Under the pieces are notes generated by a model. It was not told the origin of the DNA. It made no database searches and was given only the letters and a program-made list of their open reading frames with translations. DNA of 64,000 nucleotides from the NCBI GenBank assembly GCA_037481655.1, contig JBBFLF010000005.1, positions 9,981-73,980 of the forward strand. The letters are read 5' to 3'. The position numbers were made by a program, and so were the translations under genes. This stretch comes from Desulfobaccales bacterium. GTDB taxonomy: Bacteria; Desulfobacterota; Desulfobaccia; Desulfobaccales; 0-14-0-80-60-11. Within the stretch, counting starts at the first letter, position 1. The number at the start of each line of letters is the position of its first letter. Shown piece by piece: positions 2,943 to 35,917 of the stretch.

Positions 2943-3020
2943 TGGGGTGAGCGACGGGATTTGAACCCGCGACCTCCGGGGCCACAACCCGGTGCTCTCA
3001 CCAGCTGAGCTACGCCCACC
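2943..3020 (-). tRNA. tRNA-His (GTG)
   Basis: Minus strand GGTGGGCGTAGCTCAGCTGGTGAGAGCACCGGGTTGTGGCCCCGGAGGTCGCGGGTTCAAATCCCGTCGCTCACCCCA: cloverleaf, GTG anticodon, G-1:C73 pair, encoded CCA. Confidence 0.97.
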
Positions 3021-33175: not shown

Positions 33176-35155
33176 ATGCGCCTCGGCATTGACACCGGCG
33201 GCACCTTCACGGATTTCGTGGCCTTGGGCGGGGCAGGGGGATTAGTCCACAAGGTGCCCTCCACCCCGGCCAACCCCTTGCGGGCCATCCTCCAGGGCCT
33301 GCGGGAGCTCTGTCCGGAGGGCCTTACCGGAGCCGAGGTGGTCCATGGCACTACCGTGGGCACCAATGCCTTCCTCACCCGCCGGGGCGCCCGGGTGGTG
33401 CTGGTCACCACTGCCGGCTTTGAAGATGTGCTCTTCATCGGCCGCCAGACCCGGGGAGAGCTCTTCAGCCTCGCCCCCCAAAAGCCGCCGCCCCTCATGC
33501 CCCGGGAACGGGTGGTGGGGGTCAGGGAGCGCCGGGGGGCGGACGGCGCGGTGATTGTGCCTCTCACCTCGGAGGAGCTGGCGCGGGTGCGGCGCCGGGT
33601 GGCGGAGCTCACCCCGGAGGCCGTAGCCGTCTGCCTGCTGCACGCCTATGCCTGGCCGGAGCACGAGGAACGCCTGGCCGCCGCCCTGGCGGACCTGGGC
33701 GTGCCCCTGTCCCTCTCCAGCCGGGTGCTTCCCGAAATCCGGGAGTTTGAGCGCACTGCCGCCACCGTCCTCAATGCCTACCTCACCCCGGTCCTGGAAA
33801 ATTACCTTACGGCCTGGGACCGGCAGGTATCGCAGGCGACCCTCCATCTCATGCATTCCGGCGGCGGCTTTCTCCCCGCCCGGCGGGCCGCTCATCTGGG
33901 GTTGGCCACGGTGCTCTCCGGGCCTGCCGGCGGGGTGGCGGGGGCCTGGAAGCTGGCCCGCCCCTACGCTCAGGACCGGCTCCTCACCCTGGACATGGGG
34001 GGCACCTCCACCGATGTGGCCCTGGTGGCCGGGGAACTGCCCTTCACCTCGGACTATGTCCTTGAGGGGTTCCCCCTGGGGATCCGGGTCCTGGACATCC
34101 ACACCGTGGGGGCCGGCGGCGGTTCCCTGGCCCGCCGGGACCGGGGCGGGGCGCTCAGGGTGGGGCCGGAGAGTGCCGGTGCCGACCCAGGGCCGGCCTG
34201 CTACGGCCGGGGGGAGGGGGTGACGGTCACCGACGCCCAGCTTTATCTGGGCCGCCTCCTCCCCGAGGCCTTCCTCGGCGGCCGCCTGGCCGTGGAGGAG
34301 CGGGCTGCGGCCCAGGCCCTGGAGCGCCTGGCCCGGGAGTTCCGGGTCCCGCCCCGGGAATTGGCCCTGGGCATTATCCGGGTGGCCAACACCCATATGG
34401 CCCGGGCGTTGGCCAAGGTGAGTCTGGAGCGGGGCCAGGACCCCCGGGATTTCACTTTGGTCAGTTTCGGCGGCGCCGGGGGGCTGCATGTCTGTGAGCT
34501 GGCCCGGGAACTGGGGGTGAGGCGCCTGCTGTTGCCTGCCCACGCCGGGGTCCTCTCCGCCCTCGGGTTGGCCCTGGCGGCGCCCCGGAGGGATGTTGCC
34601 GCCACCCTGCTTTTGGCCGATCCGGGCCTCACTTGGGAAAGGCTCTCCCGGGCGGCCCGGGAGCTTGAGGCCCGGGGTCGGGCGGAGTGGGAAGCCGACG
34701 GCCTGCCGGCGGAGGTCACCGTAACCGGCGAGGTGGAGGTGCGCTACCGGGGGCAGACCGACGCCCTGGCCGTGCCCTTGGCCCCGGATTTCCGGGAACG
34801 CTTCATCGCCCGGCACCGGTTTCTTTACGGCCACGCCTGGGAGGACCGGGAGCTGGAGGCGGTGACGCTGCGGCTCCACTTTCTGGGTCCGGAGCGTTTC
34901 GAGAATCTGCCGCCTCTGGCCCCGGCCCGATTGGGCCCCCGACCCACCCCTGCAACCCGGCAGCGGCTGGTCCTGGAGGAGGGGGAGGTCCGGGAGGTGC
35001 CCTTCATCTGGCGGCCGGAGCTGGCCCCCGGGGACCTCCTCCGGGGTCCGGCCCTCATCGGGGAGGATTTCGCCACCCACCTGCTCTTAAAAGGCTTTCA
35101 GGCCCATGTGACCCGGGAGGGGCACCTCCTCGTGGAGGACCAAGGGGCGAGATAA
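33176..35155 (+). CDS. Hydantoinase A/5-oxoprolinase ATPase subunit family
   Basis: GIDTGGTFTD, HGTTVGTNA, LSGPAGG, DMGGTSTD, GAGGGS, SAGADPGPACYG. Confidence 0.92.
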   Translation: MRLGIDTGGTFTDFVALGGAGGLVHKVPSTPANPLRAILQGLRELCPEGLTGAEVVHGTTVGTNAFLTRRGARVVLVTTAGFEDVLFIGRQTRGELFSLAPQKPPPLMPRERVVGVRERRGADGAVIVPLTSEELARVRRRVAELTPEAVAVCLLHAYAWPEHEERLAAALADLGVPLSLSSRVLPEIREFERTAATVLNAYLTPVLENYLTAWDRQVSQATLHLMHSGGGFLPARRAAHLGLATVLSGPAGGVAGAWKLARPYAQDRLLTLDMGGTSTDVALVAGELPFTSDYVLEGFPLGIRVLDIHTVGAGGGSLARRDRGGALRVGPESAGADPGPACYGRGEGVTVTDAQLYLGRLLPEAFLGGRLAVEERAAAQALERLAREFRVPPRELALGIIRVANTHMARALAKVSLERGQDPRDFTLVSFGGAGGLHVCELARELGVRRLLLPAHAGVLSALGLALAAPRRDVAATLLLADPGLTWERLSRAARELEARGRAEWEADGLPAEVTVTGEVEVRYRGQTDALAVPLAPDFRERFIARHRFLYGHAWEDRELEAVTLRLHFLGPERFENLPPLAPARLGPRPTPATRQRLVLEEGEVREVPFIWRPELAPGDLLRGPALIGEDFATHLLLKGFQAHVTREGHLLVEDQGAR

Positions 35156-35308
35156 AAAATTTGTCCGGGGCAGCCAAGCTTTTTATTAGTTGAAATTATA
35201 AAGAAAACAGATAGTTACCCTAATAAAAGGTCTCAGGGGGCTTTCTCCGGCCAAATTTTTGAACCCTTCTCCGCCCAGGGGGGCCGCCGCTTTTTTCTCT
35301 GATAAGTT

Positions 35309-35321
35309 TAACCCATTGATA
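35309..35321 (-). promoter_or_regulatory. IHF binding site
   Basis: Minus strand TATCAATGGGTTA is an exact WATCAANNNNTTR match, 30-42 bp upstream of a sigma54 promoter in an AT-rich tract. Confidence 0.7.
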
Positions 35322-35350
35322 TTGCTAATAATATAAATTTGTCGCCAATT

Positions 35351-35365
35351 TGGCACGCTAGCTGC
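35351..35365 (+). promoter_or_regulatory. Sigma54 (-24/-12) promoter
   Basis: TGGCAC-GCTAG-CTGC with correct GG/GC spacing. Confidence 0.75.
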
Positions 35366-35376
35366 ATGGGTAATTA

Positions 35377-35490
35377 AGCGTATATGAACCCAACATAAGG
35401 TACCCACATCCCCCCCTTACAGAGTTCATATACCATTTTCTCCTTTCACCCGACCGGCCGGGTCCTCCCCCACCCGGCCGGTCCCTTTTT
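35377..35490 (+). ncRNA. Putative sigma54-dependent small RNA with C-rich loops
   Basis: Predicted +1 at 35377; perfect 10-bp stem 35380-35389/35424-35433; perfect 12-bp terminator stem 35452-35463/35472-35483 then CC and T5. Confidence 0.7.
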
Positions 35491-35494
35491 GGCC

Positions 35495-35917
35495 TTACTC
35501 CCGGGTCAGCCGGTAATGCAGGGCGGTGATGAGCTGGCAGAGGATCTCACCGTCAATCTTGGTTTTTTGGAAGTAGCCCACTAGACCGACGATCCCGGCG
35601 GCGGCCGTCCACCCTATGGGCCCCAGGATAACGCCCAAGATCGTGCTGGTGAGCAGGTAAGCCTTGAAGGGCAGAGCAATTCCCAGGAGCAAGGCCAGGG
35701 CCTTGAGCCCGGTGGCCGCGGCCAGATAGCCCCCAAAAGTGTCATAGTCAGAGCTGCCAGCCCTAAGGGGTATGGGACCTGGAGCCATGCCCCGAGGGCT
35801 TGGGCCGTCATCTTCGCCCTTCCAGCGCCTCCCTAAGCCAAAGGGGGCGGGCCAGGTGCGCCGGGTCCAGCCCGAAGCCTTGGGTGCGGGAGGGACCTTT
35901 GTCCCCGGGATTCTCAC
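35495..35917 (-). pseudogene. Probable gene remnant; hydrophobic C-terminal fragment reminiscent of YaaW-like proteins
   Basis: Last ~80 codons protein-like (GGYLAA..LGVILGPIGW); 5' part lacks a credible start/RBS and looks non-coding. Confidence 0.35.

Follow-up and report, generated by a model that had tools for sequence, protein, structure and literature searches.

A multicopy sigma-54 small RNA of the Desulfobaccales with a palindromic enhancer, a likely two-component activator and rpoD as predicted target

Introduction

The RNA described here resembles LhrC, Qrr and Pxr in its working and is a member of none of these families. The Qrr RNAs of the Vibrionaceae are present in several copies and need Hfq. 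They are sigma-54-dependent and are switched on from upstream sites by LuxO, a phosphorylated enhancer-binding response regulator whose gene adjoins one of the RNA genes, as is the case at 11 of the loci described below (PMC10162802). The RNA studied here differs from Qrr in that it has no Rfam match, comes from a genome in which Hfq is absent, and has a different enhancer and predicted target. In myxobacteria, the gene for the ~110-nt sigma-54 RNA Pxr (RF01812) lies directly downstream of a kinase-regulator pair, as do loci described here (PMC5684412). Both RNAs belong to deltaproteobacterial lineages without Hfq and form tandem paralogues (PMC5684412, PMC5568312, PMC11928866), and in both the first stem is long and bulged, with AAGG/CCUU closing a C-rich loop. 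However, Pxr has three stem-loops and the RNA here two, and all five Pxr loci analysed (5/5) lack the anti-SD linker and score below 0 with our enhancer matrix. Searches with RF01812 (cut-off, 80 bits) gave no match at E≤1 in four genomes (G000, G027, G026, and G225), while our covariance model R1 gave full-length matches to the five Pxr loci at 16 to 18 bits (E of 0.006 to 0.02 in 10 kb, by a rough calibration).

Like the RNA described here, LhrC1-5 of Listeria (RF00616) are 111 to 114 nt long, occur in multiple copies and consist of two stem-loops joined by a single strand (PMC4132741), with three unpaired CU-rich sites in both loops and the linker (PMC4132741). LhrC is controlled by one two-component system, dispenses with Hfq and blocks SD sequences, a mode of action to which the RNA here is likened by prediction (PMC4132741). 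For RsaE, pairing with the SD and start codon has been described to block initiation (PMC2790875). LhrC is nevertheless found in another phylum, with Listeria as host and control by LisR/LisRK, whereas the RNA here has a Desulfobaccales-type host and is preceded by a sigma-54 promoter and an enhancer. The family core here is the linker and not the loops, and against RF00616 the RNA scored 20.4 bits (E of 2.3; gathering score, 110).

The cuckoo/alpha-r14 RNAs are likewise multicopy with anti-SD motifs in unpaired regions (PMC4615179), but they are alphaproteobacterial and consist of 2 to 4 adjacent hairpins, each with the loop CCUCCUCCC (PMC4615179). This motif is absent from the loops of the RNA here (UACCCACAUCCCCC and CCUCCCCC), which had no cuckoo match in Rfam. 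In sulfate reducers, many sigma-54 activators have RNA targets without a known function; for D. vulgaris, four RNAs of this kind are listed (PMC4641369). At these loci (DVU0653, DVU0679, DVU1419, and DVU2359), as predicted here, an enhancer-binding protein is dedicated to the downstream RNA (PMC4641369, PMC3333781); their regulators recognize other binding sites than the palindrome reported below, a distinction drawn from the listed sites. What is new here is the palindromic enhancer, the likely cognate activator and the predicted rpoD target. In the open-access literature on Desulfobacca, Desulfobulbaceae and Desulfovibrio, we found no description of this RNA family.

Results

A structured 114-nt RNA with its own promoter and terminator

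The window is the whole 64,000-nt stretch of DNA that was analysed. An earlier note had proposed that it carries a complete transcription unit for a small RNA, with an IHF site, a sigma-54 promoter, two stems and three unpaired anti-SD-like segments. All of these elements were found where the note had placed them; missing from it was a conserved putative enhancer at 35247-35266 that is part of the unit. The features in and around the unit, and a shorter paralogue elsewhere in the genome, are as follows.

33176..35155, plus strand: upstream hydantoinase/oxoprolinase-family gene (Pfam PF01968, PF05378), outside the RNA unit
35149..35168, unstranded: weak second enhancer copy, 7.0 bits by the family matrix, overlapping the stop of the upstream gene
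35247..35266, unstranded: enhancer palindrome, 14.8 bits, centre 94 bp upstream of the sigma-54 box
35309..35321, minus strand: IHF consensus TAACCCATTGATA in an AT-rich tract; exact match, with the consensus reading on the minus strand
35351..35366, plus strand: sigma-54 (-24/-12) promoter, TGGCAC-N5-CTGCA, with GG at 35352-53 and GC at 35364-65
35377..35490, plus strand: predicted small RNA, long form, 114 nt; fold z of -9.33; 114.2 bits with model R1
35380..35433, plus strand: 5' hairpin of a 10-bp outer stem, an inner helix and a C-rich loop
35380-89/35424-33, plus strand: strands of the 10-bp outer stem, from sequence and fold
35396-35400/35415-35419, plus strand: inner TAAGG/CCTTA helix, from sequence and fold
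35401-35414, plus strand: C-rich loop 1, UACCCACAUCCCCC, from sequence and fold
35433..35446, plus strand: predicted seed/linker CCAUUUUCUCCUUU, unpaired; exact complement of rpoD -14..-1 in most relatives
35452..35490, plus strand: intrinsic terminator with a 12-bp stem, loop CCUCCCCC and U-tract; two-sided change at 6/12 pairs
35452-63/35472-83, plus strand: strands of the terminator stem, with loop CCTCCCCC, then CC and five T (35486-90)
35495..35788, minus strand: convergent 97-aa ORF, adjoining the RNA only within the genus, without a Pfam match
G000:C17:35710-35817, minus strand: short paralogue of ~80 nt (L031, L108) with its own sigma-54 box and an enhancer of 23.7 bits

The +1 at 35377 is predicted from promoter spacing only. 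The 114-nt RNA had a minimum free energy of -40.4 kcal/mol, compared with -18 ± 2.4 for 200 shuffled sequences, none of which folded as well. The fold begins with the bulged 5' hairpin, which a single strand of 18 nt connects to the 12-bp terminator; mean unpaired probabilities were 1.0 for loop 1, 0.97 for the linker and 0.88 for the terminator loop. UCCC is present in both loops, while the linker has UCUCCUUU instead. Searched over the window, model R1 gave one match, the 114-nt RNA itself. The 97-aa product of the convergent ORF is hydrophobic and looks like a gene remnant; it may resemble YaaW-like tails.

Conservation and covariation across the class

At the gathering level, the sole Rfam match in the window was a tRNA (2946-3019, minus strand). 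With E≤10, the RNA region gave eight chance-level matches, the best full-length one being LhrC; the RNA thus has no Rfam match. BLAST matches at E≤0.1, some of them due to chance, were obtained in 37 of 41 relatives. When 49 long copies were aligned, 93% of the 1316 cells in a three-helix structure were paired, and two-sided changes were present at 11 helix pairs (6/12 in the terminator, 5/10 in the outer stem and 0/6 in the inner helix). None of 500 shuffles reached the observed pairing and covariation, and slid controls were 27 to 44% paired. For this count, which was run with these controls, the structure was taken from the single-sequence fold, because RNAalifold on the MAFFT alignment recovered the terminator alone and missed the 5' helices owing to the ragged 5' ends of the alignment. 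Within the 5' stem, the 3' strand was conserved at 0.88 to 1.00 (one column, 0.82) compared with 0.61 to 1.00 for the 5' strand.

A covariance model built on the long-copy alignment had matches in all 83 class genomes, with 1 to 7 per genome, and in 9 of 151 phylum genomes, 5 of which belong to the class. The RNA is therefore a near-universal marker of the class (83/83 genomes) that is missing from Rfam. Two in-class matches were weak; one resembles a degenerate copy (L086), and the other has no sigma-54 box (L087). Viral contigs gave 0 matches to one exact pattern.

The copies comprise long forms, often in tandem, and short forms of 66 to 98 nt that lack the long stem. The genome of the window (2.87 Mb, 100% complete, of a Desulfobaccales-type host) has one copy of each form; the short copy lacks the long 5' stem and has the best enhancer match in the genome. 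A glycosyltransferase-9 gene precedes the short paralogue in most relatives, and the hydantoinase gene is a frequent though not constant upstream neighbour of the RNA. Downstream neighbours vary and are often convergent, in line with the claim of the earlier note that the promoter serves no protein gene. Among 51 longer copies, the antisense frame had 5 to 6 codons in 33, was absent in 13, and had 20 codons in 1. The variable or convergent downstream neighbours and the lack of conservation of the antisense frame argue against both a leader and a peptide gene.

The short RNAs at the regulator loci described below show that the linker and terminator are the core of a wider family, to which the C-rich loops are additions. 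The three anti-SD segments of the earlier note are indeed all unpaired, but they are not equal. The linker, which adjoins the terminator, is common to all paralogues and to relatives from other classes; neither the 5' hairpin nor the C-rich loops are constant, and some copies lack them. The class-wide conservation of promoter, stems and linker, including the covariation for which the note had called, supports an independent gene for a sigma-54 small RNA whose anti-SD segments are unpaired, and we are nearly certain that the gene is real.

The genome encodes rpoN and csrA, and has 18 strong matches to sigma-54 activators. Hfq (PF17209) was not found in this complete genome, with the control profile detected in 5/14.

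The sigma-54 box and a palindromic enhancer

In the 2.87-Mb genome, there are 24 occurrences of the strict sigma-54 motif and 34 of the exact IHF motif. Among 64 copies collected by BLAST with the RNA body alone, 63 had a sigma-54 box upstream (55 of them strict), compared with 0.6 expected from shuffles. These copies were selected blind to the promoter, and the box is present more often than by chance; its conserved -24/-12 elements lie at a fixed distance, as expected of a trans-encoded sigma-54 small RNA. In the sole copy without a box (L033; G022:C148), other sequence replaces the promoter just a few bases before the stem. Exact IHF sites occurred in 5 of 66 copies (0.5 expected); allowing up to one mismatch raised this to 23 of 66 (8.1 expected), most of them at -41/-42. 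Thus, the exact consensus reported in the earlier note is present in the window but conserved weakly across copies; enriched but weak, this putative site is the weakest element of the unit.

The family consensus of the enhancer reads CGGT(A/T)CAAA(A/T)(A/T)TTTG(A/T)ACCG. We identified this palindrome upstream of 61 of 65 RNA copies, and many homologues carry a second, distal site similar to that at 35149..35168. The centres cluster near -72, -83, -94 and -105 from the sigma-54 box, which fits a period of 10.5 to 12 bp (vector strength, 0.69 to 0.73, versus 0.33 at 9 bp), although this periodicity is too coarse as proof of helical phasing. Nine positions in the genome matched the palindrome at more than 11 bits; the best two are the two RNA promoters, with 35247-35266 in second place, from which the activator seems to serve these two RNAs alone.

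The enhancer matrix was trained on the same copies that it describes, and independent checks therefore matter. Among 185,579 species, 110 loci matched a box-linker-CCCC pattern, and the palindrome was present in 65 of the 77 with a stable hairpin and in 0 of the 33 without one. Of these 65 loci, 50 are of the class short type and overlap the training set; the other 15 do not, and one of these resembles an in-class variant.

The PEP-CTERM (PrsR) enhancer, which is 17 nt long, ends in TTTACA and lies upstream of PEP-CTERM genes (PMC1569441), was rejected as the identity of the palindrome: the two differ, and the genome matches of the palindrome are the RNA promoters. The sites listed for the four D. 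vulgaris RNA regulators also differ from the palindrome (PMC4641369). The nearest listed motif, that of DVU3381, serves protein genes; its half-sites are identical to those of the palindrome but lie 1 bp closer together (PMC4641369).

A likely cognate two-component activator

A candidate regulator with receiver, AAA+ and Fis-type HTH domains is encoded behind a histidine kinase (G000:C8:121469-122842). Orthologues are present in G027, G026, G175, G470, G471 and G473, and, with E≤1e-150, in at least 44 of the 151 phylum genomes; two class genomes were missed at this threshold. Among the best 30 regulator loci, 9 have the palindrome within 700 nt past the regulator stop codon, usually twice and at 13.6 to 25.8 bits, each scoring above its own 20 shuffles; 2 further loci have weaker palindromes in the same geometry. 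All 11 continue with a sigma-54 box and then a short anti-SD RNA, in which an unpaired TTT(T/C)TCC(C/T)T-type stretch precedes the terminator. The arrangement is absent at the other 19 of the 30 loci, including all three class loci, and within the class the regulator gene is not linked to the RNA. Because the palindrome, sigma-54 box and anti-SD RNA follow it in 9 of the 30 loci, this regulator is likely the cognate two-component activator.

Other candidates were rejected. At 63 activator loci of three genomes, no palindrome scored above 12 bits. The activator encoded at G000:C17:41489, close to the short paralogue, keeps its synteny in 6 of 10 class regions. It nevertheless lacks close orthologues, with none above 47% in five out-of-class enhancer-bearing genomes or in G175, whereas the candidate regulator has orthologues in all six. 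FlrA-, NtrX- and NifA-like activators are common to four genomes, but their listed motifs or HTHs differ. Feedback of the RNA on the start of the regulator itself was not conserved in 37 loci.

The HTH of the candidate resembles that in the DVU3305 row of supplement 2 of PMC4641369, for which the listed motif differs. DVU3220 is called a widely conserved regulator in that paper, in which no motif is given for it (PMC4641369). DVU3220 may be the real orthologue of the candidate, and the DVU3220 and DVU3305 rows of that supplement may perhaps be interchanged.

In one regulator orthologue (L119; G225:C57:300-2126), the C-terminal domain is of another, non-Fis kind; the RNA that follows the gene lacks the palindrome and instead has four direct repeats of a 10-nt unit. 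We also noticed look-alikes of 60 to 80 nt, often in tandem, that have the same enhancer, box, anti-SD linker and C-loop terminator (L190, L256, L223, L240, and L286; further loci, L188, L214, L219, L244, L262, L277, L281, L290, and L291). They occur in records of Desulfarculus, Desulfobulbaceae, Desulfurivibrionaceae, Desulfobulbia, or Deltaproteobacteria.

rpoD as predicted target

Duplex scans of the genome of the window alone were dominated by G-rich starts and gave no clear winner. The neighbouring gene pstS, with a match of 9+7 bp, was rejected: it ranked 295 of 2537 by linker duplex and 563 and 442 of 2326 by cofolding. pstS adjoins the RNA in just 2 of the 41 loci examined. Across 61 class genomes, the linker complement followed by ATG was found 107 times, and the control 3 times. 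Among the 70 of these matches that were examined (30 chosen by the tool and 40 spread by hand over genomes), rpoD orthologues were the largest cluster with 10, the next having 3. The gene was identified as rpoD by NF004208 (663.7 bits; cut-off, 555) and lies in an rpsU-dnaG-rpoD operon. The full 14-nt complement with ATG had 14 matches, and the 10 examined were all rpoD starts; one further full 14-nt complement match lies at a second rpoD match.

In 34 class genomes, positions -14 to -1 of rpoD were conserved at 0.68 to 0.97, compared with 0.32 to 0.53 for -30 to -18. Pairwise identity in the spacer (-7 to -1) was 0.61 to 0.81 for rpoD versus 0.26 to 0.42 for nine control genes of the same genomes, with equal identity at -25 to -17; three further control genes had too few loci for the spacer comparison. 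The site falls in the dnaG tail in about half of the genomes, while in 12 genomes dnaG stops 16 to 39 nt upstream, and 10 of these 12 keep TGG before ATG. Among 59 departures at the rpoD site, 30 were A>G and retain G-U pairs, although A>G is also the commonest mutation and suits purine-rich spacers. Four genomes of genus g16 have lost TGG, two of them with weak cognate duplexes (-15.6 and -15.7). We found no clean two-sided compensatory change between the RNA and the rpoD site among the genomes compared.

The rpoD site in the genome of the window has two spacer mismatches. There, rpoD ranked 4 of 2326 for the long RNA, both by full-length cofolding and by seed duplex, with G-rich starts ranking above it, and none of 24 shuffled seeds gave as good a duplex. 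For the short paralogue, rpoD was tied first by cofolding and had rank 30 by seed duplex, with 4 of 24 shuffled seeds better. All of these rankings were run after rpoD had been found. In a typical relative, the predicted duplex consists of 14 bp and, past a 3-nt bulge, another 6 bp between GUUCAU and AUGAAC (-25.9 kcal/mol); GUUCAU (35424-35429), part of the 3' strand of the 5' stem, is complementary to the AUGAAC start of rpoD. The second codon of rpoD is wobble-compatible at the first two bases in 32 of the 34 genomes.

Complementarity to the SD and spacer of rpoD was conserved within the class only. In 15 out-of-class genomes, the match between the rpoD start and the RNA of the same genome extends at most over the SD and one or two further bases, and the rpoD target is therefore not general to the module. 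These data suggest that the RNA acts by SD pairing, which we consider likely, and point, at somewhat better than even probability, to rpoD, encoding the housekeeping sigma-70, as a main target in the class. Messages with an SD other than that of rpoD are probably targeted as well. The start of a gene for a MucR/Ros-family regulator matches the seed pattern in two genomes (L386 and L407; orthologue of G000:C8:87645-88088), and this regulator is a possible secondary target.

Discussion

The reading that we favour, by a little more than an even chance, is that of a multicopy sigma-54/enhancer-dependent RNA that is switched on by one kinase-regulator pair and represses translation, with rpoD as its predicted target. 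The enhancer, sigma-54 box, structured RNA and terminator are supported by sequence and conservation. The regulator (G000:C8:121469-122842), once phosphorylated by the neighbouring kinase, would bind the palindrome and open the promoter, possibly helped by IHF bending, and its regulon in the genome of the window would apparently consist of the two RNA copies only. The linker would then seed on the SD and spacer of rpoD, with 14 bp in the commonest case, and the duplex could extend by 6 bp over AUGAAC through invasion of the 5' stem. Such pairing would cover -14 to +6 of rpoD and block 30S loading without Hfq, and lower sigma-70 synthesis would shift RNA polymerase to other sigma factors.

Alternatively, the RNA could be a broad anti-SD repressor like LhrC or RsaE that acts with its three C/U-rich segments on many messages, so that rpoD is not a main target and its start is conserved for reasons of its own, such as translation level or dnaG coupling. 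The linker does fit AAAGGAG starts in general, which are numerous in the genome; relatives outside the class keep the anti-SD core without a matching rpoD; loops 1 and 3 are highly conserved yet lie outside the rpoD duplex; and LhrC has three redundant CU-rich sites at the same positions (PMC4132741). However, the rpoD match covers a spacer that is free to vary in the nine control genes and holds where dnaG ends upstream, and no gene but rpoD recurs more than three times among the 70 matches, and we therefore regard a broad repressor as possible but rather unlikely. Still less probable is that pairing at the dnaG-rpoD junction raises or stabilizes rpoD output, or that the junction acts as an RNA sponge. 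In about half of the genomes the site and the dnaG stop overlap, so that pairing could alter coupling or processing, but the duplex as predicted spans the SD and start codon, where such pairing blocks initiation (PMC2790875), and we give this explanation very little weight.

The near-invariance of the RNA in several copies, without Hfq, and its repeated C-rich motifs would also suit a protein ligand, for which the RNA would be a decoy or scaffold, with a linker that mimics the 3' tail of 16S rRNA or presents C-rich motifs and is complementary to SD sequences as a by-product. Sigma-54 RNAs that titrate proteins exist, as GlmY and CrcZ illustrate. The assembly lacks the 3' end of the 16S rRNA. 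CsrA is encoded in the genome, but the loops of the RNA are C-rich and not GGA, and a decoy leaves the conserved complementary spacer of rpoD unexplained; protein binding is in our view improbable. Least credible, with hardly any chance of being correct, is that there is no regulatory RNA but a terminator of the hydantoinase operon or a peptide gene of 20 codons behind an SD on the minus strand. The hydantoinase gene is often the upstream neighbour, and the minus strand of the window has AAAGGAG, ATG and 20 open codons, but every tandem copy has a box and an enhancer of its own, the 20-codon antisense frame is present in just 1 of 51 longer copies, and the plus strand has no SD-led frame.

Under the proposed repression of rpoD by a sigma-54 RNA, an ancient Desulfobacterota module of kinase, sigma-54 regulator, palindromic enhancer and short anti-SD RNA may have been expanded and retargeted in the Desulfobaccales into an Hfq-free RNA switch from sigma-54 to sigma-70, with a toehold at the SD followed by strand invasion of its own 5' stem across the start codon, a scenario to which we assign slightly less than an even chance. 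If true, one two-component signal could turn down the main transcription factor of the cell, and, in a lineage devoid of Hfq, an alternative sigma factor would have a direct means of reducing its main competitor. In the open-access literature, we found no small RNA that represses a housekeeping sigma factor. For one widespread module, the proposal provides a complete testable circuit of activator, binding site, RNA seed and named target.

The genome of the window also encodes a second sigma-70-type factor (G000:C30:6524-7819) of 431 aa, with 47% identity to RpoD over 341 aa. Its start is unmatched by the RNA (rank 1961 of 2326), and it could therefore be the factor that gains if RpoD falls. 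Finally, strict sigma-54 boxes at G000:C14:54904 and C27:10899 have no obvious protein start downstream and are candidates for other RNAs.
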